A stretch of 64,000 nucleotides of DNA from a virus: the IMG/VR virus record IMGVR_UViG_3300025276_000022; one strand, written 5' to 3'. How positions within the stretch are numbered: position 1 is the first letter of the stretch; every line of letters begins with the position of its first letter. The position numbers were made by a program, and so were the translations under genes. Below the pieces are notes generated by a model that was not told the DNA's origin, searched no databases, and saw only the letters and a program-made list of their open reading frames with translations. Positions 7,884 to 41,855 of the stretch are shown here, one piece after another.

Positions 7884-8470
7884 ACTATTCTTTCTAATAA
7901 TACCATGTAGTTCTGCCAATCCGTTGCAGGGTATGTAAACTCTTGAACTTTCCTGTATGGGAAATCGTCCTTATTTAGATAGTGATGTATTAACTCCCTA
8001 GGACGTATCTCATCGTCTACGGTAGACATACATTGCACGTAATCATCAATTAGTATATAGGGAGTCTTAGCCGCATTACATAGATTCATATCACTTGACA
8101 TACCATCGGTTCTATGATCACCATCGATAAACACCATGTCGTAATGTTCTATTGTAGTCGGATCGATATCGAAGGAACTCGTCTTAGTAAATTCGAAACG
8201 CTCACCGAACTTATCTTTAAGGTGTGCGGCATTCACCAACGTGTGTTCGTATTGACAAATGTCTACCGAATGATATACTAGATCCTTGTTCACAGTCATA
8301 AAGGTATATGCACTGTGTCCGTAGTTGAACCCAATCTCTAATACGTTTTGACAACGAGTCAGTTTGCATATAACATGTATCATGCGACAAGTGTGCTCAC
8401 TCGGTATAATATGACCTTCTTCGTAGGGCCATCCGTCGGTGAGGAACTTACATTCTTTTACTAGATTCAT
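7880..8470 (-). CDS. class I SAM-dependent methyltransferase (Methyltransf_24-like)
   Basis: VLEIGFNYGHSA motif I, YDMVFIDGDH, ILIDDY. Confidence 0.88.
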   Translation of the reverse strand: MNLVKECKFLTDGWPYEEGHIIPSEHTCRMIHVICKLTRCQNVLEIGFNYGHSAYTFMTVNKDLVYHSVDICQYEHTLVNAAHLKDKFGERFEFTKTSSFDIDPTTIEHYDMVFIDGDHRTDGMSSDMNLCNAAKTPYILIDDYVQCMSTVDDEIRPRELIHHYLNKDDFPYRKVQEFTYPATDWQNYMVLLERIV

Positions 8471-8492
8471 TTTAAAGATGTCTCCGGATATG

Positions 8493-8517
8493 TATAAATA
8501 GTATGACAGTATTTATA
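8493..8517. promoter_or_regulatory. pair of opposed late promoters driving divergent operons
   Basis: TATAAATA on + (8493-8500) and on - (8510-8517). Confidence 0.85.
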
Positions 8518-8534
8518 AACATAGGTATACCCCC

Positions 8535-9665: not shown

Positions 9666-10387
9666 TGTCATACTTTAACGATTTCCCATTACAGTTCTAT
9701 TCCTTCGGTGACGGAGAAGAAACTGCACTGGTACAAAACCTTGCCGTCTATGTAGATATTCTGGACGACATCAAAATGAACTCTGCTTTTTATCAAGACT
9801 ATAATATACAGGGTGGCGAGAGACCAGACCAGACTGCATTTATGTTGTACAAGAACCCACACATGCATTGGACGTTCTACTTTATGAACGATAAGATACG
9901 TGAACAAGGTTGGCCAGTAGCATACAATGATGTCGTCAAACGAGTTAAATCCGATTACCCTGATTATGTACTTACCACACAAGACTCCATACACAGTATC
10001 CTCTCGATAGGGGACACTATAACTGGTGCCATGAGTCAAGCGGTAGGTATCATTAAGTACAAGAACCTAGACCTAGGACAGATCTACGTAGAGGTTCAGG
10101 GCAATGTGAAGTTTCAACAAAGTGAGATGGTAGTGTCTAACACGGACATTGATGAACACGTCGACCTCATCGCAGCGACTCAGGGTTACCTTGCAACACA
10201 TCACTATGAAGTGAATGGCGAACATGTAGACTTGGATCTAACGGACATGAGTGTACCCACGAATGCGGTACCCGTAACCAACCTAGACTCCTACCTAAAT
10301 GATAACGACAAGTTGAAACAAATACGTGTTATCACTCCAAGAGAAATCAATACAGTACAACAATTGTTTAAAGAAGCCTTGAGGTAA
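9665..10387 (+). CDS. 53: baseplate wedge gp53
   Basis: MSYF..FP...Y, Y.IQGGERPDQ.A..LY....HW, ND....I.VI. Confidence 0.88.
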   Translation: MSYFNDFPLQFYSFGDGEETALVQNLAVYVDILDDIKMNSAFYQDYNIQGGERPDQTAFMLYKNPHMHWTFYFMNDKIREQGWPVAYNDVVKRVKSDYPDYVLTTQDSIHSILSIGDTITGAMSQAVGIIKYKNLDLGQIYVEVQGNVKFQQSEMVVSNTDIDEHVDLIAATQGYLATHHYEVNGEHVDLDLTDMSVPTNAVPVTNLDSYLNDNDKLKQIRVITPREINTVQQLFKEALR

Positions 10388-10389
10388 TA

Positions 10390-11694
10390 ATGTCCAACGA
10401 TGCTAATAATCTAGTTAATATCGAATCTGTTATAATTGAACAGAAAGAATCTAAGTTATCTACTGAGATAGCGAATGGGGTTTCTGATATTGATATATTC
10501 GAGCATTTAGATAAACCTTACCTAACTGCTGTATTGGGTTATACCGACAGGGACAGTGTCGTCTCTCTTATGAATATCTCTGGCGGAGAAAAGATACATA
10601 TCAAACTAAAGAGTAACCGCCCTCAAACTGTAAGTGTTTCCAAAACATTCTTCATCGATAAAATAATCCTATCCGATAAGAGTACAGAGTTATCAGAACT
10701 CTATGTGTTCCATTTGATAGAAGACATTGGGTACATGTCTAACCTAAAAAATGTGAACCAACCTTACAGTGGTAAACCTAATGAGATAATCGAATTGATC
10801 GCCAAGGACTTTCTCGATACCACGGTCGTACACACAGGCCAAGTCCATCAATCGATGAAGGTCATTATACCTAACCTAACTCCGATCGATGCTATGTGCT
10901 GGATAAAGAACCGAGCCTCTACTGGGGATGGGTATCCATACTACCTATATTCCACACTAGTCGACAAAGAACTACAGATGAGAGATTTGCACTCTCTTAT
11001 GACACCAGTCTCAATGAATCCCAAGACCCCTTATTCTTTCACTGGAGCCTCTCTTGCTGAATCGAGTTCAGATCGTACAACATCTGATCGTACCATTGTT
11101 AGGTATCAATCAAAGAATACAGAGAACCTGTTCAAACTGATACAGGAAGGTCTCATTGGTTCGGAGTACAGCTACATAAACGTGACTAAGAATAAGGTAG
11201 ACACGTTCTCATTTAATGTAGATACTGAGGTGATTACACGACTGAAGACTGATAATATCATTAACAAGGGTACACCGTTGTTTGACAATAGTAAGTACAA
11301 AGATATCACAGCTGATATGAAGAGTAGAAGTATAAGTCAGATAGGTAGTTCATCTGCGTACGATGACGGCAACAAGTCTTACTCAGAGAGTGAAGAGGTA
11401 GCACAGTACAAGTTTAACATCATTAACCGAGCAATGACTCATATGTTAACTAAGAGTAAGATAGACTTTGTGCTTGAAGGTACAGAGTTCTTGGACGGTA
11501 ATGCTAACAAAACGCTGGGTAGAAAGATATCTCTCAGGTTTCTACGTAACAAACTAGAGGAAAGTTCTGCTAACATATATGACCGTAAGAAGTCCGGTGA
11601 CTTTCTCATCTTTGCATGTAAACATTCTATATCACGGAATTCATACTATGTGACAATGTCTGGTGTGAAACTATCTAATGGAGAGGTACAATGA
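10390..11694 (+). CDS. baseplate hub protein (gp27/late-control-D-like)
   Basis: IDIFEHLDKPYLTA, IIPNLTP, D...SG.FLI...KH; lies between gp53 and gp5. Confidence 0.65.
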   Translation: MSNDANNLVNIESVIIEQKESKLSTEIANGVSDIDIFEHLDKPYLTAVLGYTDRDSVVSLMNISGGEKIHIKLKSNRPQTVSVSKTFFIDKIILSDKSTELSELYVFHLIEDIGYMSNLKNVNQPYSGKPNEIIELIAKDFLDTTVVHTGQVHQSMKVIIPNLTPIDAMCWIKNRASTGDGYPYYLYSTLVDKELQMRDLHSLMTPVSMNPKTPYSFTGASLAESSSDRTTSDRTIVRYQSKNTENLFKLIQEGLIGSEYSYINVTKNKVDTFSFNVDTEVITRLKTDNIINKGTPLFDNSKYKDITADMKSRSISQIGSSSAYDDGNKSYSESEEVAQYKFNIINRAMTHMLTKSKIDFVLEGTEFLDGNANKTLGRKISLRFLRNKLEESSANIYDRKKSGDFLIFACKHSISRNSYYVTMSGVKLSNGEVQ

Positions 11695-12320
11695 TCCCCA
11701 GTGACTTTATTGAATACTATGGAGACCAGACTCGTTGGTTCCTTGGTGAGGTTGTCAATGTAAAGAACGACCCATTGAAATTAGGCCGCGTACGTGTGAG
11801 GGTAGTTGGGGTACATGATGACAAAAAACTCATCAAAGATGCTGACCTACCTTGGGCACAGATCGTTGTACCTGTTACACAAGGTGTACATGAAGGTAAG
11901 GGACAGTACCTAGGTATCCTAGTGGGTACACAAGTGTTCGGTATCTTCTTGGACGGACAGAACTCTCAGTTACCTATGGTGATTGGTACTGTACCTAAAG
12001 AAGGTGATGCGAACCCTAAGGCGGATGCCAACTATCCTACCAACAAAGTGTACGAGACAGAGACCGGACACTATAAAGAGTATGATGATACGGCTGGTGC
12101 TGAACGTATTAAAGAAGCACACAAGTCTGGTACTTACTATGAGATGCAAGCGGACGGTTCTATTGTTACGTTCATCACTAAAGACAACTACTCAATAGTA
12201 CTTGGAGACGAGTCGGTAACAATCGCTGGTAAGGTAACTATTAATGTCGGTGGTGATGTTGATCTAACTGCGGGCGGTACAGTCTCTATCAATGCTAAAA
12301 ACCTTAAACTGAACTCGTAA
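11691..12320 (+). CDS. 5: baseplate central spike gp5 (OB fold + short beta-helix, no lysozyme domain)
   Basis: WFLGEVV...DPLKLGRVRVRV.G.H, LPWA, VFG.FLDG...Q.PMVIG, YP.NKVYETE.GH..EYDDT.GAERI...H.SGT. Confidence 0.9.
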   Translation: MIPSDFIEYYGDQTRWFLGEVVNVKNDPLKLGRVRVRVVGVHDDKKLIKDADLPWAQIVVPVTQGVHEGKGQYLGILVGTQVFGIFLDGQNSQLPMVIGTVPKEGDANPKADANYPTNKVYETETGHYKEYDDTAGAERIKEAHKSGTYYEMQADGSIVTFITKDNYSIVLGDESVTIAGKVTINVGGDVDLTAGGTVSINAKNLKLNS

Positions 12321-13516
12321 TGGCATATCAGTTACCGTGCGATGGATCAACTCTACCTACCAAGGCTGCGTTCGTTCAGATATACAATGATATCTGTATG
12401 GTACCTAGTAAGTTGAAGGCGTACTCGGTAGAGAACCCCGACCTAGACGCAGAGGCAAAGAAGAAGATAGAGGATGTCACCAAACAGGTCGAAGACTTCG
12501 TTGAGGCACAGTCTCTAATACTATCTCCGTACTGGCAGAAAGGACAGATACGTAACTGGCAGAAAGAAGCTAACGATGCATGGTCGGAACTGATCGACGA
12601 GTTTCACATGTACATCCCAGTTAAGATGCTTGATGTGATATCGAGTGTAGTCCCCGTGGACTTCGAAGTGACCGTTATGGGTATAGAGGTTGACTTACTC
12701 AAGATACTGGATAAAAAAGAACAAGAGAGTATCAAGAAACAAATCACCGATGAGGTAGATAAGTACTATGCTCTGGTACCCGAAGGATATCAGTACTATA
12801 AAGGTGAGTTCGGTGTTGAGTGTGATGAGTGGAAGGGTAAACTTACTTGGGCATATTTTAAAAACAAGTTGGTCAATTTATGCACTAACCTATTACATTC
12901 TACCTTCGGGGCATTGATTGATGCATTCAAAGAGATCTGGGATACCTTGGGTCTACCTAGTATACCTGTTATATCAGAGTTTGATGTAGAGACCTTTATA
13001 CGTGAGCAGATAGACGCATTCAAAGAACAAGCGAAAGGTGAACTGGCCAGAATCAAAGCACAGTTAGAAAAACTCGAAGAAGATGCAAAGACATCAACGG
13101 GTGATATTAAGAAACAGATAGATGACCAGATTGTTAAAATAAAAGATGATATCGCAAACTTCACGGTCAATGGGTTCATCGTCGATCAACTCAAAGGGGT
13201 GTCCTTGTTCGGTATGTCTCTTCTGGATATCATTGGGGGTGAGATCGATACCAATGTGGTAGTACCGGAAGACCAGATAAACGAAATGGTACGTGCGGCT
13301 AGAGATTGGTTCATACAATGGCAGAAAGAACTGATCAACCTATGGATCAAGAAGATCAAGTCGTTCCTAGACGCAATCGGATTAGGTTCACTACTTGACT
13401 TCCTAACACTAACATTCTGTGATGTATTGGAGCTGATCGGAGTTCCTTTGTCAATAGATTTAACACTACCTGAATTACCTGAAATTGGAGAGGTCATACC
13501 TAATGGCATACAGTGA
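12320..13516 (+). CDS. hypothetical protein downstream of gp5 (probably baseplate-associated)
   Basis: 398-aa ORF translationally coupled to gp5; no family recognised. Confidence 0.65.
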   Translation: MAYQLPCDGSTLPTKAAFVQIYNDICMVPSKLKAYSVENPDLDAEAKKKIEDVTKQVEDFVEAQSLILSPYWQKGQIRNWQKEANDAWSELIDEFHMYIPVKMLDVISSVVPVDFEVTVMGIEVDLLKILDKKEQESIKKQITDEVDKYYALVPEGYQYYKGEFGVECDEWKGKLTWAYFKNKLVNLCTNLLHSTFGALIDAFKEIWDTLGLPSIPVISEFDVETFIREQIDAFKEQAKGELARIKAQLEKLEEDAKTSTGDIKKQIDDQIVKIKDDIANFTVNGFIVDQLKGVSLFGMSLLDIIGGEIDTNVVVPEDQINEMVRAARDWFIQWQKELINLWIKKIKSFLDAIGLGSLLDFLTLTFCDVLELIGVPLSIDLTLPELPEIGEVIPNGIQ

Positions 13517-13907
13517 GAAGCTACTAGATCATTACGAGAACCCTAGGAACGTCGGAGTGATGGACGAGAAGTCTGTTAACGTCGGAACAGGTATGGTGGG
13601 TGCACCAGCATGCGGTGATGTTATGCGACTACAGATACTAGTGAACGATGACGGTATCATAGAAGACGCGAAGTTCAAGACCTATGGTTGCGGATCAGCA
13701 ATTGCATCTAGTTCGTTACTGACCGAATGGGTCAAGGGTAAACACTTAGATGATGCAATGCTAATAAAGAATACCGATCTAGCATTGGAGTTAGCATTAC
13801 CTCCAGTAAAAATACATTGTTCGGTACTGGCAGAAGATGCTATTAAGACTGCCATTAGAGATATTAAAAGTAAAAGGAAGGTATTCAGTTAAGATTACCT
13901 GAAATTG
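13474..13907 (+). repeat. 14-bp direct repeat ATTACCTGAAATTG flanking iscU
   Basis: identical copies at 13474-13487 and 13894-13907. Confidence 0.9.
13503..13892 (+). CDS. iscU: Fe-S cluster scaffold IscU (auxiliary metabolic gene)
   Basis: MAYSEK..DHYENPRNVG, GAPACGDVM, FKTYGCGSAIASSS, LPPVKIHC: three Cys, the Asp, the His and the HscA-binding LPPVK motif all present; GGAGAGG SD. Confidence 0.97.
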   Translation: MAYSEKLLDHYENPRNVGVMDEKSVNVGTGMVGAPACGDVMRLQILVNDDGIIEDAKFKTYGCGSAIASSSLLTEWVKGKHLDDAMLIKNTDLALELALPPVKIHCSVLAEDAIKTAIRDIKSKRKVFS

Positions 13908-13922
13908 ATGTTGCAGTTTATG

Positions 13923-13930
13923 TATAAATA
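13923..13930 (+). promoter_or_regulatory. T4-type late promoter
   Basis: TATAAATA upstream of gp25. Confidence 0.85.
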
Positions 13931-13952
13931 GTATGAAAAGAGTTAAACCATT

Positions 13953-14396
13953 ATGGCAAAAGCATTCTCGATAGAAGACGGTAACCTACAGAACAAACCG
14001 ATCACAACCTCGATCGATCGTATCAATAAAGATATCGACTGTTCTTTCATACCGAATCCTACTACAGGCGACATCTACAAGAAGACAGATGCTAACGCAG
14101 TCCGTCAATCTGTAAAGAACCTCTTAATGACAGAGAAGGGGTCTATGCCATTTCGTCCGTATTATGGTGCAGGGTTGGACGGTATACTATTCTCCCTATC
14201 TACCGACTTGGACGAGGAAGACATAGTGTCACGAGTACGTTCTACCATAGCCAACTATGAACCTAGAGCGGAACTACAAGATGTAAAGGTTACTATTAGA
14301 CCAGATTATAATTCGGCAGACCTAACGATAATATTTGGTGTGGTTAATACCACCAAAGTTGTCACACTAGGTCTAACTATTGCAAGGGCAAGATAA
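13953..14396 (+). CDS. 25: baseplate wedge gp25
   Basis: AVRQSVKNLLMT..G..PF.P..G, I.NYEPR. Confidence 0.92.
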   Translation: MAKAFSIEDGNLQNKPITTSIDRINKDIDCSFIPNPTTGDIYKKTDANAVRQSVKNLLMTEKGSMPFRPYYGAGLDGILFSLSTDLDEEDIVSRVRSTIANYEPRAELQDVKVTIRPDYNSADLTIIFGVVNTTKVVTLGLTIARAR

Positions 14397-16247
14397 ATGA
14401 CTATTAATACTTCTGACTTAGATTTTTATGATATCAAGTCCAAACTAAAGACATACTTCCGAAATAGTGGGGAGTTTGAGGACTATGATTTTGATGCGAG
14501 TGGTCTGTCTAACATTCTAGATGTACTAGCATACAATACCCATATCAATGGTCTTATCGCTAACATGTCTATCAACGAGTCGTTTCTAAGTACCTCTCAG
14601 TTACGTTCGTCTGTTATATCCCATGCAGAGAGTCTAGGGTACTTCCCTAAGTCCGTTACTGCTGCTCGTGCTAAGGTTGATGTGACCATCACGATACCAA
14701 CACCCCCTTCAACCTTTACCCTACCTAGGGGTACAAGTTTCTTTGCTTCTATTGATGAGACCAACTATGAGTTCTTCACTATAGAGAATTATAGTGCGGT
14801 CAAGGCCGTGGATAGTAATACATTCACCTTCACTGGAGTAACTCTAGTAGAAGGTAAGAATAAATCCAAAACCTTCCTTGCTGATAAAAACATCGATGTA
14901 CCTTACGTAATACCGGAAAGCACTATAGACACTTCTACCATGTTGGTCAACGTGTTCCCTAATGGTACAACTAACCTGTCTAACATATACCTAAACATTA
15001 AAGAGGTTGCTACTATTGACGACAACTCTCGTGTGTACATGGTACGTGAGTCACATAATGGTAACTACGAGATTGTATTTGGAGACGGGAACGTATTAGG
15101 AACTAGACCAGAAACGGGTAACGTTATTAAGGTAGACTATATTGCGACTCACGGAGCAGCTGCAAACGGTGCAAAACTGTTCTCCCTAAATGAGTATACT
15201 GGTACAGACTACGTAGTGAATGTAACTACAGTTTCTAATTCTGCTGGTGGTTCAGGTATCGAGTCTATACAGTCGATCAAGTTGAATGCTCCTCTTGCAT
15301 ACTCTGCGCAGAACCGATTGGTTACCGCAGAAGATTACTCAGGTATGATTCAAAGTAAGTATGGTGCATATGTTAAGGACGTGGCGACATGGGGTGGTAA
15401 CGACAACGTTCCCCCACAGTACGGTAAAGTATTCGTCAGTCTAAACTTCCTAGATGGTGTGGACGACTCTTCTAAGATAATGGTCGAAGGAATGATTAAA
15501 GATCAATTGACTTCTAATCTATCTATCATGTCTATTGATACGGTGTTCGTTAAACCTCAGATCACTAACCTAGAATTAAGGACATCCTTCAACATAGATC
15601 CTATTAAAAATACGACAACCGAAGAAGTCCTAGAGACACAGGTCAATGAACTTATCCAAAGTTACATGAGCGTTAATCTGAACCAATTCAATTCAGTGTT
15701 CCGACGTTCGAATATATTAACATCGATAGACAATCTCTCTAGTGCTATTCTAAACTCTAGGATGGATGTTAAGGTACAGCAAACAATCAATATTACTGAA
15801 CTGGTTGCAGATCTTGAAGCAGCTCAGGTAGCAGCAGGTATCGCGTTCGACACATACATCGAACAGGACTATACACTTAATTTCCCAGTCATTTTAGCTG
15901 CAGCAGATAAAGACGAACATATAATAACGACGACCATATTCAAGTCGAAGGGTCAGAACGTATTGATAAATAATGTAATTGGTTCAACCCGACTACAAGT
16001 AGTAGATCTAGAGGGTGTTGTAAAGATACCTAATATAGGTTCATATGATCCTGCCAAGGGTAAGGTTGTCATAAATGCATTACGCGTGGACAAGTCTGGG
16101 TACTTAGGTGATGGTATAAAGGTAAGCGCAACCCCTGCAAACCAGAGCACAATTAATCCACTGAGAAACTATATCTTCAGTTTGGATAGCGAAACATCTA
16201 CCACCGACGGTAAAGTCGATTCCGGAGTCACTAAGGTTATATTGTAA
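14397..16247 (+). CDS. 6: baseplate wedge gp6
   Basis: LDF..IK..LK.Y, F.DYDF..SGLS.ILDVLAYNTH, FGDG.LG, AQNRLVTAEDY, WGG.DN.PPQYGKVF. Confidence 0.95.
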   Translation: MTINTSDLDFYDIKSKLKTYFRNSGEFEDYDFDASGLSNILDVLAYNTHINGLIANMSINESFLSTSQLRSSVISHAESLGYFPKSVTAARAKVDVTITIPTPPSTFTLPRGTSFFASIDETNYEFFTIENYSAVKAVDSNTFTFTGVTLVEGKNKSKTFLADKNIDVPYVIPESTIDTSTMLVNVFPNGTTNLSNIYLNIKEVATIDDNSRVYMVRESHNGNYEIVFGDGNVLGTRPETGNVIKVDYIATHGAAANGAKLFSLNEYTGTDYVVNVTTVSNSAGGSGIESIQSIKLNAPLAYSAQNRLVTAEDYSGMIQSKYGAYVKDVATWGGNDNVPPQYGKVFVSLNFLDGVDDSSKIMVEGMIKDQLTSNLSIMSIDTVFVKPQITNLELRTSFNIDPIKNTTTEEVLETQVNELIQSYMSVNLNQFNSVFRRSNILTSIDNLSSAILNSRMDVKVQQTINITELVADLEAAQVAAGIAFDTYIEQDYTLNFPVILAAADKDEHIITTTIFKSKGQNVLINNVIGSTRLQVVDLEGVVKIPNIGSYDPAKGKVVINALRVDKSGYLGDGIKVSATPANQSTINPLRNYIFSLDSETSTTDGKVDSGVTKVIL

Positions 16248-17185
16248 TGTCACAGTTTCTCGCCAATCAGTACAGAACGAATACTAAGTTCCACCAGAAT
16301 AATGTAACTCAGATTCTTCCGGAATTCTATCAAGAAGAATACCCTGATCTTATTAGATTCATAGAGGCGTATTACGACTATACTGGAGAAGATGGTTCTG
16401 CTTCATTCAACGATCAAATTCAAAACTTATTCGATTTAAGAAACATATCATCAACTGATATAAAACATCTAGATCTTTTAATAGGAGAGATAAGTAGTGG
16501 TTTAGAATCGTCTTCATTCTATCAGAATCCTCGGTTGATGACTCGGCTTCTTTCGGATCTATATCGTGCTAAAGGTACACAGATATCCGCAGAGCATTTC
16601 TTTAAAGCATTCTTCAACGAAGATATTGAAGTAACTTACCCAAAGAAAGATATCTTCATATTGAATGATAAATTGGGTGGTTCTTTAGTAGGGCCGGGAT
16701 CATTACATTATATTCAAGACGATAAGAGGTATCAGATATTTTCAGTTCTTTTGAAAACAGGTATATCCTTTAGTGATTACGAAGATCTCTACAAGAAGTT
16801 GGTTCACCCAGCTGGATTCCATTTAGCAGCAGACGTAGTAATCCAAAGCTTGGGAGTAATTAATGTTCGTGCTGGATTGACGACAGATCCACTTGCACCA
16901 TCTGAAGCTCCACTATACCTTGTCAGTCACGCTTCCCCTCTTGCTGATACACAATATGCATTGTTGACTATGAATGAGACGGATGCGACAGACGCGGAGT
17001 TTATTCTCAGTTCTGCGAAGATACTAGACCAGTATCAATATTTGACTCTAGAAAGAATGGAAGAAATTTACGGAACTATTGCAGAATGGGCATCCCCAAC
17101 TTCCGTATCTATGGCGAATCAAAATATATACATGTCGGATAATGCATTTTCCACTGATGCTGACGAAGCAGAAACAACCTTATAA
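16247..17185 (+). CDS. baseplate wedge subunit (short gp7-like)
   Basis: LP.F....YP....F..AYY, LYRAKGT..S...FF, IQD...YQ.FS, KLVHPAGF. Confidence 0.75.
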   Translation: MSQFLANQYRTNTKFHQNNVTQILPEFYQEEYPDLIRFIEAYYDYTGEDGSASFNDQIQNLFDLRNISSTDIKHLDLLIGEISSGLESSSFYQNPRLMTRLLSDLYRAKGTQISAEHFFKAFFNEDIEVTYPKKDIFILNDKLGGSLVGPGSLHYIQDDKRYQIFSVLLKTGISFSDYEDLYKKLVHPAGFHLAADVVIQSLGVINVRAGLTTDPLAPSEAPLYLVSHASPLADTQYALLTMNETDATDAEFILSSAKILDQYQYLTLERMEEIYGTIAEWASPTSVSMANQNIYMSDNAFSTDADEAETTL

Positions 17186-17274
17186 GAGTAGTAGTTGCAT
17201 AAACAATACGGATATACTAATTCTGGTATCTTAATATGTACCATATAAAAACAAATAAAATTTAGGAAAATGTA

Positions 17275-20200
17275 ATGACTAGACAAATCATAGGATTGGG
17301 TGCAGCTGCAAACAGTAATAGTGGTGATACACTTAGAGTTGCCGGTGATAAGATCAATGACAATTTTAGTGAGCTATATACTCTACTTCAGTTAACTGAT
17401 TCTGGTGGAATTTCTCTCGAAGATCTTATCAATCTAATCAATTCTTCTGTGAGCGATCAGATAGGAAGCGGAGGTGGCGGTGGCGGAGTAGATTCCGCTA
17501 CTTTAGCAAACATCACAACTTTGATAGAACGATTAGATGTTATTGATACAATCATTGACAGTGATGTAGACGCAAGTGCGACAGCAAGATCTGTCCTGCA
17601 AACATACATCGATGTTAATGGAGTTGACATCACGGTACTTTCTCAAGACATCGTAGATCTTAGAGTAACCTTAGAGAACAGTATTGCATCTGCAAACAGT
17701 ACTCTAACTGCACGTATCGACCAAACCGATTCTTCTCTTACTGTACTTGCATCTGATGTAACTACCTTGCAAGTACAAACGTCAACTGACATTGGTGATG
17801 CAGTAGCAACTGCAACAAGTTCATTGACCGCAATGATTGTCGCAACCGATTCTTCGTTAACCTCTTTAGCATCCGATGTTGTAGAATTAGAAGTACAAAC
17901 CTCAACTGACATTGGTACCGCAGTTGCAGCTGCAACAAGTTCATTAACTGCAATGATTGTTGCTACCGATTCCTCTCTTACTGCCTTAGCATCTGATGTA
18001 ACTACCTTAGAAGTACAAACATCAACGGACATTGGTGATGCAGTATCTACTGCAACAAGTTCATTGACTACACGTATAGATGCAACTGATTCTTCGTTAA
18101 CTGCATTGGCATCCGATGTTACCGCATTGCAAGTACAAACATCAACGGACATTGGTGATGCAGTATCCACTGCAACGTCTGGTCTAACCACTCGTATAGA
18201 CGCTACCGACTCTTCTTTAACCTCCTTAGCATCCGATGTTACCACATTACAGGTACAGGTTGCTACTGACATAGGTTCAGCAGTGTCGACAGCGACAACT
18301 GATTTGACCACTCTTATTAATGCAACAGACTCATCTCTTACCTCACTAGCGTCCGATGTTACTGCGTTAGAGGTACAGGTTGCTACTGACATAGGTTCAG
18401 CAGTGTCGACAGCGACAGACGAACTTACCGTACGTGTCGATGCAACAGACTCATCTCTTACCTCATTAGCATCCGATGTAACAACGTTGGATAATAGAGT
18501 AGACACTGATATCGCATCTGCGGTCGCTACTGCACGGGACGAACTAACCACACTCATCGAAGCTACCGATAGTTCTGTATCTGCATTATCTACCTCCGTA
18601 ACTTCTTTAAGTGCATCTATTGGTGACCTTGATAGTGACCTTCTCGCTGGTATCTTAGATAATGCAAATATAACTGCTGCGAATAGTATTGCTTTACAAT
18701 CACTCACTTCTCGTGTAGATGCGGACAGTAATGGCCTCTCGATCTTATCTCAAGATGTCACTACACTAGAAGCTGAACTAACTTCGGACATAGCGAATGC
18801 AGTAGCAACCGCAACGTCTGGTCTAACCACTCGTATAGATGCAACTGACTCATCTCTTACCTCATTGGCATCCGATGTGACCGCATTGGAAGTCCAAACG
18901 GCAACAGATATCGGTACCGCAGTAGCAGCCGCAACAAGTTCATTAACCACTCTTATCAATGCAACTGACTCATCTGTAAGTGTATTAAGTGAATCCATAA
19001 CATCATTGAACGCATCTCTCGGTGGCATTGATAGTGACTTATTATCAGACATCTTCGACAACGCTGGTGCAGTTGCGGCAAACTCTGGGGCGATCTCAAC
19101 ACTGACCACTCGTGTAGATGCAGATAGTGCCGGTCTCTCGATCTTATCTCAAGACGTAACCAACCTATCCGCTGAACTAGACGTGATTGACTCAGATCTA
19201 CGTTCACAACTATCTGCTGGTGCGATTGCACGTGAGGCATTAACTACTAGAATTAATGCGACAGATAGTGATCTATTAATTGAGGCTGGTAAAGTAACAA
19301 ACTTAGGTGTTACTTTAGGACAAATCGATTCGGATCTAGGTATTAGAATTGATGCGGAAACAACAGCACGTCAAGAACTAGTTACTCGTATTACCCAAGA
19401 CAGTGCCGCACTCTCAATCTTATCTCAAGACGTTACAGACTTAGGAGTCAATCTAAATCAAATAGATTCTGACTTAGGTGTCCGTATTGATGCAGAAGGT
19501 ACTGCTCGACAATCACTAGAGACTAGAATTGACCAAGACAGTGCATCACTTTCTATTGTATCTCAAGACGTTACAGACTTAGGTGCAACATTAGATCAAA
19601 TAGATTCTGATTTAGGTGTACGTATTGATGCAGAAGCTACTGCTCGAAGTGAACTAGTTTCACGTATAGATCAAGACAGTGATACCTTGACGTTACTTTC
19701 GGCCGATGTTACACGATTAGAAGTAGATCTAAACTCTATCAATGATAGTGCCCTTGCTGCAGGGATTCTCGCCAACGGACTTGCTTTAGACAGCATGTCG
19801 ACACAGATCCTCCAAACTGACAGCGACTTACAAATAATCTCTTCACGTGTAGTAGAACTAGATGCCGCACTACAAGAAGGTATTGATTCTGACTTGGTAG
19901 TGTCAATCCTATCTAACACAACCAGCGACCTCTATGCACTGGTAGGTAAGAACTCCGATGAATTGTTTGCTCTTGCAGGCGATGTATCAACATTAACTCA
20001 ATCAGTATCCAACAAGATTGACTCTGCAACTTTGATCACTGCGACAAGTGCAGTGGAAGACGCATTACGATCTGAGATCCGAAGTGATTCAGATATAACA
20101 TCAATTGTTGACTCTAAGATTACTACGTTCGATCAATCATTGGATCGTGTCGATAGTGATGGTCTCCTTTCAGCCGTCAATGGTGTGAGAGATGAACTAC

Positions 20201-35435: not shown

Positions 35436-35490
35436 TTGCTATTTTCCAGATGATAGTGTATAATGATGTATGTTGCATACACTATAAATA
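35436..35490 (+). promoter_or_regulatory. sigma70-like promoter followed by late promoter
   Basis: TTGCTA (35436-41), 17-nt spacer, TATAAT (35459-64); TATAAATA (35483-90). Confidence 0.65.
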
Positions 35491-35512
35491 CATTTGAAGA
35501 AGCGGCTTAAAT

Positions 35513-35546
35513 ATGTGCATGAACTTCGGTTATGCACATTTTTTTT
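35513..35546 (+). terminator. intrinsic terminator
   Basis: ATGTGCAT-GAAC-TTCG-GTT-ATGCACAT then T run; cUUCGg loop. Confidence 0.85.
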
Positions 35547-35548
35547 AT

Positions 35549-35556
35549 TATAAATA
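35549..35556 (+). promoter_or_regulatory. T4-type late promoter
   Basis: TATAAATA immediately after terminator, upstream of 35607 gene. Confidence 0.85.
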
Positions 35557-35606: not shown

Positions 35607-38600
35607 ATGTCAGCATCTAGTATACCTCTAAAAATTAAGAATAGCGATGGTGACCTACAGGAACTTACCCCAGCAGAAGAGATGTATCTCGCTGTAAAGG
35701 TAGGTGAAGCACTTGCAGAGGCCTCTGCTGGTGATATAGGCGATATCAGTCTCACCAATGGTGATAACATAGGTTCATTCGTAGATTCATTCTATAATGA
35801 AGCATCGGGCACACACCCTATGTCTAACATCACTGGTACTACAGTAACCACTACCTTGAAACAGGTTGGTGGCTCTGCGAGTGAATCTGGTAGCAATTTT
35901 GCCCGTCCTGTCGGTTATTATGCAGATAATGCAAATCCTGGCTTCTACGAAATGGTAGATGCAGATTTGGATAATCTAACAAATCGCGCACTTGTGAATC
36001 TTGAAACCTTAGAACTTCAAGGTGCATTCACACTTTCGTCCACATCGCCTGGCGGTGATTGGGCAAAACATATTGACACAGTATTCTCAGATACTCGTGG
36101 AGACGGAACTTCGATAGACTTCCATATTTGGAAGAAAACCGCACTTGCATCACCCCCAGCTGGTATTGTAACCACTCGGCCAGTTGCAACCGATTATGAT
36201 GGATCCTCAGCATTTAGCGGTCTAAAAGAAATGTCTGACGCAGAGATCAAGTACACTCTCGGTCAACGTGCTAAGTCACTTAGGTCGACAGCAGGAGCCA
36301 TTGGTTCTTATCAACTTCGTTCATCTGTACAAGGCGCTCCAACCTCAGCCGGAACTTGGGTTCCTCGTGGTACTGCCGCGAATACTCAACGTACTATTGT
36401 TGATGGAACTTATTCTCGCACTCGTGCTTCTGCATATGCTCGTACAAGAGTTTCTGCATACAGTCGTAATCGTGTATCAACTTATACTCGCAACAGCGTA
36501 GATACATTTGCACGTACGTTTGCTGGTGAATATACTGGTACATATTCTCGTGAATTTGCCGGTGAATATACACGTGGCTATGCAGGGGATTACACTAGAA
36601 CTCGTCCCTCAACATATACCCGAAATCGATTAACTGCGTTCACTGGTTACTTTGCTGGTACTTACAACCGTGCAAGAGTTTCAGTATACACACGCAATCG
36701 TGTAACACCATTTACCGGAACCTTCTCACGTACTCGTGCATCAGCATACACACGTGGTCGTGTTTCAACTTACGCAGGGACTTACGCAAGAACTCGTACT
36801 TCTGTTTACACAGCGGATTATACTCGTGCCCGTGTATCAACGTACACCGGAACTTACGCAGGAGTTTATTCTCGTAACCGTGTATCTGCATATGCTGGAA
36901 CTTACTCACGTACACGTTCTTCTGCTTATAGTCAACCATATACTCGTACACGTACTTCTGCATACTCTGCGGATTATACTCGTACACGTATAACTAACTA
37001 CACACGTGATCGTGTAACCAACTTTGCTGGCGTTTTCTCTCGTGCTCGTGTTTCTACATATACTCGTAATCGCGTTACAAACTTTGCTGGAAACTTCGTT
37101 GGTAACTATGCTCGTGGATTCGTAGGTAACTATTCTCGTGGATTCGTAGGTAACTACGCTCGTGGATATGCTGGCGACTTCGTCGGTAACTACGCTCGTG
37201 TTTCTACTCGTACATCTACTCGTACTCGTTACTCTGCATACGCTCGTACATCTACTCGTACTCGTTACTCTGCATATGCTCGTGACCGTGTCACTAACTT
37301 TGCTGGTGACTTCGTAGGTAACTACGCAACAACCTTTACTGGCAACTTTGCGGGCAACTATTCAAGAGACCGTGTAACAACCTTTACTGGTGACTTCGTA
37401 GGTAACTACGCAACAACCTTTACTGGCAACTTTGCGGGCAACTATTCAAGAGACCGTGTCACTAACTTTGCTGGCGATTTCGTAGGTAACTATGCAACAA
37501 CCTTTACTGGCAACTTCGCAGGTGATTACGCAAGAACTTCTACTAGAACTTCTACGCGTACACTAGACTATACTCGTTATTTGTACTATACTGGCAACTT
37601 TGCGGGCAACTATTCAAGAGACCGTGCATTCTCATATGTTGGAGATTACTCTAGAGCTCGTGCACAAGGAACTTCGTACACTGGTAACTATGGTCGTACT
37701 AGAACAGGTAGCTACACTGGTAACTATGCACGTACTCGTACTGCTTCTTACCTCGGTAACTATACTGGTAACTTCGCTGGTAACTATATCGGTAACTATA
37801 CACGAAACCTGATCTCAACTCGGACAAGTATTACCCTCGGAGGAACATCATATTATGCTCGATTCGTGTATAATCCATACATGGGAGAACTGGTTCCGGT
37901 TTTCTATACCCGTACTGCAGCGACCGCATATTACGCTGGTAACTTTGTTACTACCATGGCGTATACGACAGACTCCACACGTGCCTACCCGATGGCCTTT
38001 ACTAGGAATCGTGCCGCGAGCTATGTAGGCGACTATGCTCGTGTCCGTGCATTCTCTTATGTTGGAGACTACTCAAGAGCTCGTGCCCACACTCTTTACT
38101 ACACTGGTAACTATGGTCGTACTAGAACAGGTAGCTACACTGGTAACTATGCACGTACAAGTACTCGATCTAGCAATGTTCTCGCATATTACGGTAGAAC
38201 TGGATATTATGCTGGTGACTTTGTTGGTAACTATGGTCGTACTCGCGTAACTAACTATGTTGGTGATTTCACTAGAACTCGTGTAACTAACTATGCTGGA
38301 AATTTCGTTGGTAACTATGGTCGTACTCGTGTAACTAACTATGTTGGCGACTTTGCTAGAACTCGCGTAACTAACTATGCTGGTAACTTTGTCGGTAACT
38401 ATGGTCGTACTCGTGTAACTAACTATGTTGGTGACTTTAGTCGCAACCGTGTAACTAACTTCGCTGGTAACTTCGTCGGTAACTATGCTCGTGCATATGC
38501 TGGTGATTATGTTGGTAACTATGCTCGCGCATATGCTGGCGACTTCGCTGGTAACTATACTGGTGATTACGCTCGTACTTCTACAAGAACTCGTTACTCT

Positions 38601-39422
38601 GCGTATATCCGTACTCGTACGTCGGCATATGTCCGTAACCGTTCTTCTGCGTACGCAAGAGATCGTATAACTAACTTCGCTGGTGACTTTACTGGTAACT
38701 ATGCAAGAACCTTCACTGGTAACTATGCACGTAACTATGCAGGCAACTTCATTGGTGATTTTGTTGGTGATTTCGCTGGTAACTATGTTGGTAACTACAC
38801 TAGACAGTTCGGTGGTAACTATGTCGGTAACTATGCACGTAACTACGTAGGCGAATATGCCGGTACATATAGCCGTGGATTCGCTGGTGAGTACACAGGA
38901 ACTTACACTGGTGTCTACTCGAACACGTTCGGTGGTAACTATGTTGGTAACTATGCACGTAACTTCGCAGGCGAATACACTGGAACTTACTCGAATACTT
39001 TCACTGGTAACTACTCACGTGGTTTCTCTGGTCAGTACACTCGCGACTTCGCTGGTGACTTCGTAGGTAACTATGCAAGAACATTTGCTGGTGAGTACAC
39101 TGGAACGTATGCAAGTGACTTTGTAGGTGACTTCGTAGGTAACTATTCACGTGACTTCGTAGGTAACTACGGTCGAGTTCGTGTATCGGCTTACTCAAGA
39201 CTACGTAACTCAACATACACTGGAATTTACTCTCGTGACCGTGTATCAACCTATGTTGGTGACTTCACAGGTAATTACTCACGTGGATTCACAGGTGATT
39301 ACGCTCGTGACTTCGTAGGTAACTATGCTAGAGCTTTCGTAGGTAACTACACTGGCGCAACAATCAGTGATACATTGGTTAACACACCAGAAAATTATAC
39401 CTTATACGTACGGGTTGCTTAA
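35607..39422 (+). CDS. putative virion protein with ~980-aa mirror-complementary tetrapeptide repeat (predicted giant beta-hairpin)
   Basis: globular N-domain aa 1-268, tetrad repeats aa 269-1251 with central NPYMG turn, short C-terminal strand YTLYVRVA; own late promoter. Confidence 0.8.
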   Translation: MSASSIPLKIKNSDGDLQELTPAEEMYLAVKVGEALAEASAGDIGDISLTNGDNIGSFVDSFYNEASGTHPMSNITGTTVTTTLKQVGGSASESGSNFARPVGYYADNANPGFYEMVDADLDNLTNRALVNLETLELQGAFTLSSTSPGGDWAKHIDTVFSDTRGDGTSIDFHIWKKTALASPPAGIVTTRPVATDYDGSSAFSGLKEMSDAEIKYTLGQRAKSLRSTAGAIGSYQLRSSVQGAPTSAGTWVPRGTAANTQRTIVDGTYSRTRASAYARTRVSAYSRNRVSTYTRNSVDTFARTFAGEYTGTYSREFAGEYTRGYAGDYTRTRPSTYTRNRLTAFTGYFAGTYNRARVSVYTRNRVTPFTGTFSRTRASAYTRGRVSTYAGTYARTRTSVYTADYTRARVSTYTGTYAGVYSRNRVSAYAGTYSRTRSSAYSQPYTRTRTSAYSADYTRTRITNYTRDRVTNFAGVFSRARVSTYTRNRVTNFAGNFVGNYARGFVGNYSRGFVGNYARGYAGDFVGNYARVSTRTSTRTRYSAYARTSTRTRYSAYARDRVTNFAGDFVGNYATTFTGNFAGNYSRDRVTTFTGDFVGNYATTFTGNFAGNYSRDRVTNFAGDFVGNYATTFTGNFAGDYARTSTRTSTRTLDYTRYLYYTGNFAGNYSRDRAFSYVGDYSRARAQGTSYTGNYGRTRTGSYTGNYARTRTASYLGNYTGNFAGNYIGNYTRNLISTRTSITLGGTSYYARFVYNPYMGELVPVFYTRTAATAYYAGNFVTTMAYTTDSTRAYPMAFTRNRAASYVGDYARVRAFSYVGDYSRARAHTLYYTGNYGRTRTGSYTGNYARTSTRSSNVLAYYGRTGYYAGDFVGNYGRTRVTNYVGDFTRTRVTNYAGNFVGNYGRTRVTNYVGDFARTRVTNYAGNFVGNYGRTRVTNYVGDFSRNRVTNFAGNFVGNYARAYAGDYVGNYARAYAGDFAGNYTGDYARTSTRTRYSAYIRTRTSAYVRNRSSAYARDRITNFAGDFTGNYARTFTGNYARNYAGNFIGDFVGDFAGNYVGNYTRQFGGNYVGNYARNYVGEYAGTYSRGFAGEYTGTYTGVYSNTFGGNYVGNYARNFAGEYTGTYSNTFTGNYSRGFSGQYTRDFAGDFVGNYARTFAGEYTGTYASDFVGDFVGNYSRDFVGNYGRVRVSAYSRLRNSTYTGIYSRDRVSTYVGDFTGNYSRGFTGDYARDFVGNYARAFVGNYTGATISDTLVNTPENYTLYVRVA

Positions 39423-39533: not shown

Positions 39534-39995
39534 ATGAGTCGTAAGCAATGGATGGATAATGCCTTCTGGGAAACAGAGGACAAGAAAGAAGTCAACTGTA
39601 TTCTAGAACTTGAAGATGATGTGGGTCGTGTAACACGTCAACAAATGATGCTAAACCGTGCTAATAAAGATGGTAGTGATAATGAATTGTTTAATGAATT
39701 AATTGACGCTCTAGGTGAAGAGGCTATTGATAAGGAAACTATCGACAGAGTCACTCGCAAGAAGGCAGAGAAAGAAGAAGAGAAAATGCGTGATGAAGAA
39801 CATCTAAAGGCACGCAAACTAGAAAAACTCTTTAACTATAAAATGGAAGCGTTCGAAGTCGAAGAGATTAAACTCTCTAAAAACCGTAAGTTAAAGGCAA
39901 AATTGCGTCGTGCAAAATCAAGAATTGAAGTAGATCTTTATTCAATCATGATTCTACAAGACCAACTTGAGGCCGCTGCTGATGGAAAAGAGTAA
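39534..39995 (+). CDS. hypothetical protein, charged helical C-terminus
   Basis: GGAG SD; 153 aa; overlaps the GT gene start. Confidence 0.75.
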   Translation: MSRKQWMDNAFWETEDKKEVNCILELEDDVGRVTRQQMMLNRANKDGSDNELFNELIDALGEEAIDKETIDRVTRKKAEKEEEKMRDEEHLKARKLEKLFNYKMEAFEVEEIKLSKNRKLKAKLRRAKSRIEVDLYSIMILQDQLEAAADGKE

Positions 39996-40719
39996 AGGTT
40001 TTATTATAGTTGCGTCTAAGAAACGCAACTTTTATTCGTACGCAATCAACCTTGCTGAATCTCTTAGGGATTATTATGAACCTGAAGAAGAATGTAAGAT
40101 TTGTTTGGTAACCGAAGAACAATTTATTGATGATCGTGGTCGTGATGTTGCGGATGACATTATAATCTGTGATGACCATTATCGCGCTAAGTTATGGGGG
40201 ATGGCAAAATCTCCGTATGATATAACAATGTACATTGATGCTGACATGGAATGTGAGCACGAAGATATTATTAAAGTTTGGGATGAAATGAAAGATCACG
40301 ACGTGGTCTTCTCAGCATTGACTGATGACCGTGATTACATTTATGCGGAACGTGATTTCTCCACACCAGAAGGTATGGCTAAATTTACTCTTTGTGGTGG
40401 TGTGTGTCTATATGATATGTCTAAACCAATAGTTCGTGAGTTTATGGATGATTGGTGGGACTTAACATACAGACAAATGAATGATACTTGGTGGCCAGAA
40501 GGTTATGTTGATTCTCTAAAGTCTTGGGATCAATTCTCTCTTTGGTGGTTAACTGAGAAAGAACCAAAATATAAGGATCTTAAAGTCGGCATCTTTGATG
40601 ATGACTTGAGATGGAATTACTATAATGCTCTTAATTGGGCACAAACGAAACCCGAAAATGGGCCGGTGATATTACGTCACTTCTCTGCTGGGTTAAATAA
40701 GGATACTCCAATCGTATGA
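39982..40719 (+). CDS. GT-A fold glycosyltransferase / nucleotide-diphospho-sugar transferase
   Basis: A..LAESLR, KL......SPYD.TMYIDAD (DxD), GGV.LY, WDQFSLW, RWN, ILRHF. Confidence 0.8.
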   Translation: MEKSKGFIIVASKKRNFYSYAINLAESLRDYYEPEEECKICLVTEEQFIDDRGRDVADDIIICDDHYRAKLWGMAKSPYDITMYIDADMECEHEDIIKVWDEMKDHDVVFSALTDDRDYIYAERDFSTPEGMAKFTLCGGVCLYDMSKPIVREFMDDWWDLTYRQMNDTWWPEGYVDSLKSWDQFSLWWLTEKEPKYKDLKVGIFDDDLRWNYYNALNWAQTKPENGPVILRHFSAGLNKDTPIV

Positions 40720-41423
40720 CACAGGTAAACGACCAATATCTCAGACACGTCGAGGTTAATAACCCTGAACTGCTAGAGATTCTAAACGAATACTCCAAGT
40801 TGCATACCATGCAAGGTTTCGAAGAAAACTGTCACTTGTCCTCAAAACAAGCCATCCGTCAGCGCGACTTCTATGTGGGCCCTAAGCACATGGATGAGAT
40901 TGTCGGACAAGGTACAGGACACGAAGGTTTTCCAGACGAACTTGTTGGTTATAACTTTAAACTTTCTGACAAAGCACACATGATGTTTGAGCAGGGCGCA
41001 GACCCTCTCTTTAAAAGAGACATGACTCTACATCTCCGTGACTTAAACGATAAGATGATGAACTTCTTATCGGTCAAGCATAATGCTCTTGCAGCAGTAT
41101 ATCCGCCAGGTGGATTCATCTCATGGCACAACAATGCAAATGCTCCGGGCTATAACCTAATCTTTTCTTACTCAGAAGACGGTTCAGGTTACTTCGAATA
41201 TATTCATCCTGAAACCAAGGAAGTTATTCGTAGTCAAGACCAAGCAGGTACATGGACATGTAAAGCAGCATACTTCGGTCATTACGGACAAGATGATCAG
41301 ATATTGTATCATGCCGCTTCTACTGATGATTGGCGTTGTACTGTATCTTATGTATTTGATCACTCAGACGAATCTATCGCTTTGCGTGAAATGGTATTAA
41401 CAGATATCGAATCTGTAGAATAA
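40716..41423 (+). CDS. cupin / 2OG-Fe(II) oxygenase-like protein
   Basis: YPPGGFISWHNN...distal YHAA....R.TVSY double-stranded beta-helix pattern; Asn in place of the HxD acid. Confidence 0.6.
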   Translation: MTQVNDQYLRHVEVNNPELLEILNEYSKLHTMQGFEENCHLSSKQAIRQRDFYVGPKHMDEIVGQGTGHEGFPDELVGYNFKLSDKAHMMFEQGADPLFKRDMTLHLRDLNDKMMNFLSVKHNALAAVYPPGGFISWHNNANAPGYNLIFSYSEDGSGYFEYIHPETKEVIRSQDQAGTWTCKAAYFGHYGQDDQILYHAASTDDWRCTVSYVFDHSDESIALREMVLTDIESVE

Positions 41424-41450
41424 AATCTATATCTTCAAGCCTTAAGCTCT

Positions 41451-41458
41451 TATAAATA
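41451..41458 (+). promoter_or_regulatory. T4-type late promoter
   Basis: TATAAATA in intergenic gap. Confidence 0.85.
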
Positions 41459-41498
41459 GAGGTAGACGTTTTATAAACAGTTTAAGGTTTTGAAGAAT

Positions 41499-41855
41499 AT
41501 GGCAACTTACGAAGATTTCACAATAGATCAAGGTTCTGATTTAGCTCTACAATTAGAGTTAGTAAATCCTGATGGTTCAACAAAGAACCTCAATGGATAT
41601 ACAGTTAGTGCTAAGATGAAGAAAACCTTTCGAAGCACAGCTGAAGATACCGTTGATTTCTTATCAATTGTAGCAGATCCTGCCGAGAGCGGTGTTGCTA
41701 CAATCTCCCTCACAAATATCCAAACCGATGCCCTATCTGCTCGTGGTAGATATGTCTATGATGTCGAACTGAGTTACTTAGACTCTGCCGGTAATTCCAT
41801 CGTAGAAAGAGTACTAGAAGGCAAAATTAAAGTCAACCCTTCGGTCACAAGGTAA
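41499..41855 (+). CDS. conserved virion beta-sandwich protein (BppU/LtfC-like fibre attachment)
   Basis: IDQGSD, LNGYTV.AKMKK, GRYVYDVE, RVLEG.I.V.PSVTR. Confidence 0.75.
   Translation: MATYEDFTIDQGSDLALQLELVNPDGSTKNLNGYTVSAKMKKTFRSTAEDTVDFLSIVADPAESGVATISLTNIQTDALSARGRYVYDVELSYLDSAGNSIVERVLEGKIKVNPSVTR

Follow-up and report, generated by a model that had tools for sequence, protein, structure and literature searches.

How might a highly repetitive protein chain find a single register when it folds? The question is raised by P0001, a gene for a protein of 1271 amino acids (aa) in a 64,000-nucleotide (nt) stretch of viral DNA (IMG/VR record IMGVR_UViG_3300025276_000022) that was analyzed as a whole and is called the window below. 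Tetrapeptide repeats make up 983 of its residues (aa 269 to 1251, apex loop included), with periods of 4, 8, 12, and 28 residues. A sequence-only reading had proposed that the chain folds back on itself and that its two arms are matched, tetrad against tetrad, by a code. Our analysis suggests that P0001 is likely a late-expressed fiber of a T4-like marine cyanophage (Kyanoviridae-like) with a stalk in which the chain doubles back, most likely as one extremely long two-stranded beta ribbon.

The two arms of P0001 match in a single mirror register

We sorted the repeat units into four classes: A, [YF]xRx; B, [YF]xGx; C, [RS]xxx (the RxSx type); and o, units that begin with an aromatic residue but have neither R nor G at position 3. 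The 8-residue combination YxRxRxSx recurs often among the repeats. Re-parsing both outer arms returned 96 tetrads against 96 without an indel, exactly as the sequence-only reading had it, and its class counts were matched as well (N arm, A31, B30, C29, and o6; C arm, B51, A28, C14, and o3). With the arms aligned antiparallel at offset 0, each of the 43 C units (29 on the N arm and 14 on the C arm) faces a B unit, which agrees with the count made earlier by hand. When the arms were shifted to every other offset between -60 and +60 tetrads, in either orientation (antiparallel or parallel), about 50% of the pairs conformed, and the runner-up reached 24/41. We also shuffled the units 20,000 times freely and 20,000 times with words moved whole, so that YxRx-RxSx adjacency was kept. 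The mean was 19.8 conforming pairs, and the maxima were 31 and 32 of 43. An estimate that assumes independence puts the probability of 43/43 facing pairs at 9e-16.

The same register extends into the inner arms, where aa 653 to 749 and aa 771 to 867 follow an identical pattern of lengths on each arm [2,4,2,4x7,2,4x11,2,4,4,5]. This region adds 12/13 conforming C:B pairs, and its sole exception, STRT:FVTT, is the lone rule breaker near the apex that had been reported before. Every bulge pair listed in the sequence-only reading was found at mirrored positions (LD:GY, LY:AY, TS:LY, LI:MA, and the 5-residue pair GGTSY:AATAY). Because facing bulges are equal in length, the register is constant across 481 residues per arm. 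The symmetry axis lies at the turn YNPYMGE, where it had been placed, inside the loop of aa 750 to 770.

A test that requires no parsing gave the same result. When residues i and j (1-based) with i + j = 1519 are set opposite each other, every one of the 126 Arg residues in the repeats has Tyr (74), Gly (44), or Phe (8) as its partner. Across 1381 offsets, the mean for this test was 32% (standard deviation, 21%), and the second-best offset reached 86% on a short overlap. The single sharp peak near i + j = 1519 that had been expected was therefore obtained with tetrads, against other offsets and shuffles, and with Arg residues, against other offsets. Facing pairs at this sum include R:Y (74), R:G (44), F:T (18), and F:S (17), which match the proposed contacts of Arg over Gly, Ser/Thr under Phe, and Tyr with Arg. 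At even positions, the pairs alternate regularly between small hydrophobic (T:V, 24; A:A, 15; V:V, 9) and polar (N:T, 19; D:N, 14; N:N, 14).

A mirror pattern of this kind could be structurally meaningless, as a chance product of low complexity, an assembly artifact, or a by-product of an inverted repeat in the DNA. Short conflict-free runs of 4 to 11 pairs do occur at many wrong offsets, and when such runs are chained permissively, a parallel control still earns about 75% of what the antiparallel orientation does. However, none of the 40,000 shuffles exceeded 32 where P0001 scored 43/43, the Arg test gave 126/126, and a relative described below independently scored 38/38 units and 124/124 Arg. 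Nor did we find a DNA inverted repeat behind the pattern: complementarity about the axis is 30 to 35%, compared with a mean of 25% over all offsets and values of up to 39% at other offsets, so the signal resides in the protein. The offset and shuffle controls thus refute a meaningless pattern, which we regard as extremely improbable.

Tandem repeats face one another across the register

The tandem arrays of P0001 also lie opposite each other (Table 1). Two arrays of period 84 nt, one on each arm and with different units, face each other at i + j = 1519, which bears out the claim that a triple 28-aa repeat on one arm faces a different triple 28-aa repeat on the other. Two arrays of period 36 nt face each other in the same way, and a triplet of octads on the N arm (positions 37095 to 37167) is opposite three YxRxRxSx-type octads on the C arm. 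In addition, the inner arms share a 145-nt direct repeat. Under the code, the unit that it encodes complements itself, and its two copies thus pair mutually. Changes in stalk length would arise through duplications on one arm that are matched by duplications on the other.

A compact rule describes the facing units

Among the facing units of the outer arms there were 43 C:B, 20 A:A, 13 A:B, 11 B:B, 6 A:o, and 3 B:o pairs. Pooling 17 family members gave 772 facing pairs, comprising 297 C:B, 251 A:A, 90 A:B, 43 A:o, 33 B:B, 30 B:o, 19 o:o, and 9 C:o. A:C and C:C pairs were absent from this pool, where about 125 and 30, respectively, would be expected as estimated from class frequencies. All pairs, including STRT:FVTT, fit one compact rule: Arg is never opposite Arg, and the number of Arg residues in a facing pair does not exceed the number of aromatic residues. 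Since Arg is found only opposite Tyr, Phe, or Gly, an RxSx unit can face only an FxGx unit. The aromatic residue opposite Arg is usually Tyr (560 Y and 130 F), and that opposite Ser/Thr is usually Phe (183 F and 38 Y). Because the three unit types follow one another in irregular order, only one register among hundreds satisfies the rule. Such a code would hold a highly repetitive hairpin in place and prevent slippage.

The sum i + j = 1517 yields clean Arg partners just as 1519 does, and 1521 yields 52 R:R pairs. This pattern fits direct and diagonal neighbors in a twisted ribbon, or interdigitation, as judged from the sequence. If the latter applied, the arms would pack face to face with their Arg and aromatic side chains interdigitated like a steric zipper, in a larger cross-beta or sandwich-like assembly. 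The choice between Tyr and Phe points the same way, correlating about equally with both flanking odd positions of the facing unit, as if the side chain sat between two. Nevertheless, direct and diagonal neighbors in a twisted two-stranded ribbon predict the same asymmetry as the clean sums, the correlation with flanking positions is confounded by correlations within units, and AlphaFold2 modeled a monomer with long, unbroken strands at its base (see below). For these reasons, we consider face-to-face packing unlikely.

Relatives have registers of their own and vary in length

A word-indexed search returned 171 homologs of 700 to 1800 aa. An exhaustive search with the globular N-terminal domain (N-domain) matched 347 clusters (50% identity), of which 263 fell at <1e-10; lengths ran from 404 to 4046 aa. 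The family defined by this domain is large, unannotated, and almost wholly metagenomic. In an automatic scan for the best single-offset register of each protein, we required 9 or more conforming pairs and no more than 1 violation, and 28 proteins passed (P0001 and 27 homologs). In the clearest homologs (724 to 1214 aa), 14 to 25 RxSx units conformed with 0 or 1 exceptions. Conforming and violating pairs numbered 25/0 in P0007 (1105 aa), 24/1 in P0010 (1214 aa), 22/1 in P0013 (818 aa), 20/0 in P0012 (876 aa) and P0016 (724 aa), and 18/0 in P0014 (786 aa), where every C unit was included. In most passing proteins, with five listed exceptions, the best sum exceeds the protein length by 238 to 260, so that residues just ahead of the conserved C-terminal tail are the partners of the repeat that directly follows the N-domain.

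Relatives spanning 436 to 1290 aa each have a single register of their own, anchored at a common base. Their arms are collinear for 150 to 250 residues while their total lengths differ by hundreds, which means that changes in length must have been matched on both arms. The sequence-only reading had proposed that homologs collected through the N-domain be checked for such compensation, and the collinear arms imply it. The apices differ widely, spanning everything between a tight loop and a single globular domain sited exactly at the axis, and globular domains are located either at the apex or within the returning arm. We were unable to build an orthologous alignment of the apex, as BLAST of aa 700 to 820 gave only repeat-level similarity at unrelated positions. 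A Pfam search of the apical or inserted domains in four relatives returned nothing. Because the apices are variable and both the N-domain and the YTLYVRxA tail are conserved, we read the protein as a virion fiber that is anchored by both termini and has a variable distal tip.

A related 146-kb phage contig carries tandem paralogs in a gene context like that of P0001. One has 818 aa (22/1) and the other has 1144 aa, with 38/38 units conforming and 124/124 Arg residues obeying the rule at i + j = 1387. They occupy positions 7001 to 12926 of the contig (L003). Given these tandem paralogs, one virion may carry hairpin fibers of two lengths.

Phage C48C1 (OQ984149, Kyanoviridae) has a 3347-aa homolog, encoded in the region 9001 to 19044, annotated as a "hypothetical protein," and syntenic with P0001 downstream of a tail assembly chaperone. 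We had chained its short conflict-free runs with free shifts, which proved to be an invalid statistic, with the parallel control reaching about 75% of the antiparallel score (582 versus 773). Because this control failed, the chain result was dropped as evidence and the protein was retested segment by segment. Three C-arm segments could each be set against the N arm perfectly and in one register only: aa 3256 to 3327 (i + j = 3593, 21/21 Arg), aa 2128 to 2407 (i + j = 2981, 71/71 Arg), and aa 1426 to 1807 (i + j = 2666, 109/109 Arg). The sums fall by 612 and then 315, implying insertions of about 612 and 315 residues that are confined to the returning arm. In the translation, they correspond to nonrepetitive stretches that are apparently globular. 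Three short repeat segments of the C arm that lie between these were ambiguous because the N arm that they face has a 12-residue period. This sequence suggests a stalk with arms of about 975 residues each, an apical domain, and several further domains that loop out from one of the strands. About 75 residues of the protein are also duplicated exactly (RKTRHRSYLYY...NFSGQY twice), a unit that runs from the last part of a globular insert into the first part of a repeat segment.

Other homologs carry recognizable domains. Precomputed Pfam annotations place FG-GAP_2 (PF14312) and Laminin_G_3 (PF13385) on the metagenomic homolog P0002 (1798 aa), and PF13385 or PF14312 is also present on the family members P0044 and P0094. 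Similarity to the repeats is more widespread than the N-domain. A 1912-aa "structural protein" of Synechococcus phage S-RIM2 (KX349259, 1417 to 7155), whose gene immediately precedes the neck genes, resembles aa 942 to 1170 of P0001 in FxGx-type repeats alone (about 31 to 34% identity). An FxGx-repeat match to P0001 was found in 63 Synechococcus phage records, none of which contains the N-domain.

Structure prediction and the proposed architecture

Using an alignment of 111 sequences, AlphaFold2 modeled P0182, a minimal family member of 436 aa, with a mean predicted local distance difference test score (pLDDT) of 78.5 and values of >90 in the N-domain. The model contains two long strands. The first covers residues 260 to 294 (35 residues), with pLDDT falling from 97 to about 50, and the second covers residues 398 to 434 (37 residues), with pLDDT rising from about 47 to 98. 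Both coincide with the base of the hairpin predicted by the code (i + j = 686). The C-terminal tail has a pLDDT of 95 to 98 in this monomer model, and its residues Y429, L431, Y432, and R434 are invariant across the 111 aligned sequences. Alignments from fold searches with the N-domain span residues 43 to 436 of P0182 and so take in the tail.

The tail bears on a further alternative, in which two chains pair head to tail to form either a rod of doubled length that carries N-domains at both ends or a polymer with open ends. An antiparallel homodimer yields the same signal of constant i + j, and the register tests do not tell it from a single folded chain. Even so, the tail is confidently modeled within the monomer and is included with the N-domain in the fold alignments. 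Moreover, apices that range from tight loops to axis-centered globular domains are easier to reconcile with a turn than with the midpoint of a dimer, and a fiber needs one attachment end. We consider head-to-tail pairing very unlikely.

In the proposed architecture, the globular N-domain (aa 1 to 268) would carry a stalk in which the N arm (aa 269 to 749) runs antiparallel to the C arm (aa 771 to 1251) in a gap-free register of i + j = 1519, with a 21-residue apex loop between them. The last 20 conserved residues would return to the N-domain, placing both termini at the base and the apex at the distal tip. Odd tetrad positions (Tyr/Phe, Arg, Gly, and Ser/Thr) would lie on one face of the ribbon, with small variable residues on the other. 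The beta-ribbon geometry is suggested by the sequence pattern, and the stalk would be about 160 nm long, presupposing that the ribbon is fully extended. It would probably hold the variable tip away from the virion for contact with the host. Accounting for the single register, the mirrored bulges, the facing arrays, the relatives of varied arm length, and the base strands of P0182, the evidence supports the antiparallel pairing of arms put forward in the sequence-only reading. As judged from sequence, it is the only arrangement that fits the register, bulges, facing arrays, and relatives together.

Several results weigh against this picture. The two base strands of P0182 presumably pair with each other, as their placement at the predicted hairpin base suggests, but confidence drops from the base inward, with a pLDDT of <50 in the inner stalk. 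A single-sequence AlphaFold2 prediction of aa 561 to 958 of P0001 had a pLDDT of 36.7 and a predicted template modeling score of 0.22, with short strands and no single hairpin. In only 42 of 140 complete family members did the Arg test pick the base-anchored register as the best single offset; the roughly two-thirds that miss it have inserted domains or few Arg residues. The mutual-information profile between facing positions is symmetric about an even position and does not separate lateral cross-strand pairing from face-to-face interdigitation; it fails to fix the exact residue register because unit positions 1 and 3 are coupled. With regard to a role on the virion, C48C1 is the only GenBank phage in the INPHARED set that carries the N-domain. 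Finally, we know of no precedent for a lone two-stranded ribbon of 160 nm (about 320 nm in C48C1), the stability of which is unproven.

With regard to the oligomeric state, one possibility, to which we give somewhat less than even odds, is a monomer: a ribbon of two strands, 160 nm in length and about 320 nm in C48C1, that has no hydrophobic core and in which the ladder of Arg with Tyr, Phe, and Gly is a true pairing code with a unique register, one-strand loop-outs, and compensated duplications. Alternatively, the arms could fold back within an oligomer, most likely a trimer, forming a multistranded beta tube or prism like an elongated gp37 needle, with one face of the ribbon buried. Nearly all characterized phage fibers are trimeric, the regular alternation of small hydrophobic and polar pairs at even positions could line a narrow core, and chaperone-like genes flank the P0001 gene. 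On the other hand, we found no second complementary register (other tetrad offsets conform at about 50%), though intersubunit contacts in a closed barrel might give one, and there are no HxH metal sites, with a single His (in RAHT) in the 983-residue repeat region. We therefore regard a trimer as possible but somewhat doubtful. A prediction with three copies of P0182 residues 250 to 436 and the alignment scored 0.00 and speaks neither way.

Searches for a described relative of this fold yielded little. Foldseek with the P0182 model found nothing in the Protein Data Bank (PDB) at an E value of ≤0.001. A wide VIA-align search returned as its best matches MABP/MACPF C-terminal beta-prism-like domains (Z scores of 7.4, 7.0, 6.0, and 5.4) over about 120 residues with a root mean square deviation of 3.6 to 4.9, scores within the range common for unrelated models. 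In the ESM Atlas, the only matches were viral hypothetical clusters that belong to the P0001 family. Comparing P0001 with all PDB chains by phmmer gave no match at E values of up to 1, and Pfam-A contained no matching family. In PHROGs v4, there was a single marginal match, to phrog_15773 (function unknown; E value, 7e-05), on the repeats and none on the N-domain. Full-text literature searches found no paper on the P0001 family or architecture, and C48C1 appeared in no relevant paper. The earlier remark that no described family with this architecture was known accordingly stands for Pfam, PDB sequences, and the literature, with the one marginal PHROGs match, and the fold-back pairing-code design appears to be new in that we did not find it described in the libraries or literature searched.

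Gene layout and genomic context

The window covers a T4-like structural region with baseplate wedge subunits, a DUF4815 giant protein, tail fiber proteins, neck-sized genes, terminase, and sheath. P0001 is thus encoded in a tail/baseplate module, as is characteristic of the class of phage virion fibers. A Phage_tail_APC chaperone gene is directly upstream of it and a gene resembling those for L-shaped tail fiber assembly is downstream, a context that is syntenic in C48C1 and the 146-kb contig. Together with the fold-back pattern, this setting suggests that P0001 would be located on the virion and bind the host or its receptor.

Two copies of TATAAATA precede the gene, and the second lies 51 nt ahead of its ATG. 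This motif, the T4 late-promoter consensus, occurs 15 times in the window compared with 4.0 expected, mostly ahead of structural genes. By analogy, the copy upstream of P0001 would be a T4-type late promoter.

Table 1 Features of P0001 and its upstream region, in window coordinates
Feature	Position	Strand	Description
Upstream motifs	35483..35556	+	Two TATAAATA motifs (35483-35490 and 35549-35556) flanking a terminator-like hairpin with a T run (~35513-35547)
P0001, whole gene	35607..39422	+	1271 aa
N-terminal globular domain	35607..36410	+	aa 1-268; nonrepetitive; family signature, matched by 347 homolog clusters
N arm, outer part	36411..37562	+	aa 269-652; 96 tetrads, phase unbroken
N-arm array, period 36 nt	37207..37283	+	aa 534-559; 2.1 copies; faces 38478-38565
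N-arm array, period 84 nt	37284..37516	+	aa 560-637; 2.8 copies, 92% matches; faces 38208-38492 by i + j = 1519
N arm, inner part	37563..37853	+	aa 653-749; tetrads with four 2-residue bulges and one 5-residue bulge
Direct repeat, copy 1	37598..37742	+	N arm; 145 nt; 84% identical to copy 2
Apex loop	37854..37916	+	YARFVYNPYMGELVPVFYTRT; aa 750-770 (21 residues); axis at M759/G760
C arm, inner part	37917..38207	+	aa 771-867; N-arm bulge pattern in mirror order
Direct repeat, copy 2	38021..38165	+	C arm; 145 nt; opposite copy 1 in register
C arm, outer part	38208..39359	+	aa 868-1251; 96 tetrads
C-arm array, period 84 nt	38208..38492	+	aa 868-962; 3.4 copies, 87% matches; unit differs from that of the N-arm array
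C-arm array, period 36 nt	38478..38565	+	2.4 copies; faces 37207-37283
Conserved C-terminal tail	39360..39419	+	aa 1252-1271; ends in the family motif YTLYVRxA, from a comparison of homolog C termini

Open reading frames of 82 to 91 aa lie inside the repeats in other frames or on the other strand (36712 to 36987, minus; 36736 to 36993, plus; 39001 to 39249, minus). They are probably by-products of the codon composition of the repeats and not genes. Downstream of P0001, positions 39534 to 41855 (plus strand) contain four genes for proteins of 153, 250, 235, and 121 aa, and the related 146-kb contig has genes for proteins of nearly these sizes (150, 244, 235, and 119 aa) in conserved order (L003, 13018 to 15313). 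The 250-aa protein has a subthreshold match to Glycos_transf_2 (E value, 0.004), the 121-aa protein matches an L-shaped tail fiber assembly PHROG, and the 153-aa and 235-aa proteins had no match in Pfam or PHROGs searches.

A second protein in the window, P0123 (21539 to 25759, plus strand; 1406 aa), carries Y/R/G/T repeats, similar to those of P0001 though not as regular, on either side of a nonrepetitive center (about aa 770 to 880). Three nested 60-residue windows of this protein obey the Arg rule at i + j = 1602, 1618, and 1635 (88 to 94% of Arg residues), values to which no rigorous correction for multiple comparisons was applied. Their sequence pattern suggests that P0123 may be another hairpin stalk with small net indels.

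Comparison with known systems

If the proposed architecture is correct, P0001 would be by far the longest beta hairpin known to us and, to our knowledge, the first natural protein with a long-range register written as a residue pairing code. It would illustrate one way in which a highly repetitive chain can avoid register slippage, and its rule set (Arg opposite Tyr, Phe, or Gly but never Arg; RxSx opposite FxGx) could serve for programmable beta-ribbon materials. It would also provide a structural reading for a large unannotated family in the host-recognition module of T4-like cyanophages, in which fiber length and tip diversity probably bear on host reach and choice.

The closest known system is the needle domain at the tip of the T4 long tail fiber protein gp37 (PDB entry 2XGF). 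In that needle, the chain runs to the distal tip and folds back with its strands antiparallel, so that the receptor-contacting tip is internal to the sequence. P0001 shares this fold-back character by sequence evidence alone, through its single mirror register, its mirrored bulges, and their conservation in relatives. However, the needle is roughly ten times shorter, forms a six-stranded tube as a trimer, binds iron at HxH sites, and has no tetrapeptide repeat or code; P0001 has no HxH motif, one His in its repeat region, and no sequence match in the PDB.

Triple-stranded beta-helices and triple beta-spirals, such as those of T4 gp5C and gp12 and of the adenovirus and reovirus shafts, are likewise repetitive, Gly-containing, beta-rich shafts of tail modules, and the octapeptide of gp5 is matched in length by the common YxRxRxSx unit of P0001. 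In contrast, their chains are parallel and intertwined and run one way from N to C, which predicts a direct periodicity of 8 or about 15 residues and no fold-back, mirror complementarity, or mirrored bulges. We rejected a shaft of this kind for P0001, where parallel offsets conform at about 50% and the antiparallel register at 100%.

The central sheet of OspA (Borrelia) and the G5-E repeats of SasG (Staphylococcus), which are single-layer beta-sheet rods lacking a hydrophobic core, and designed Trp-zipper hairpins are thin beta monomers stabilized by cross-strand pairs of side chains, a principle that an Arg-Tyr ladder would also use. These structures consist of tens of residues in three-stranded sheets or are peptides of 12 to 16 residues, however, and have neither arms that are hundreds of residues long nor a register code.

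As an analogy only, P0001 resembles the stem-loops of nucleic acids in its self-complementary arms, mirrored bulges, compensated lengths, apical loops or domains, and one-sided loop-outs. The rule for P0001 differs in being steric and electrostatic, acting between side chains, and in allowing more than two types of pair. If its stalk is a monomeric ribbon, it would represent a protein analog of the nucleic acid stem-loop and a natural, programmable scaffold of adjustable length.

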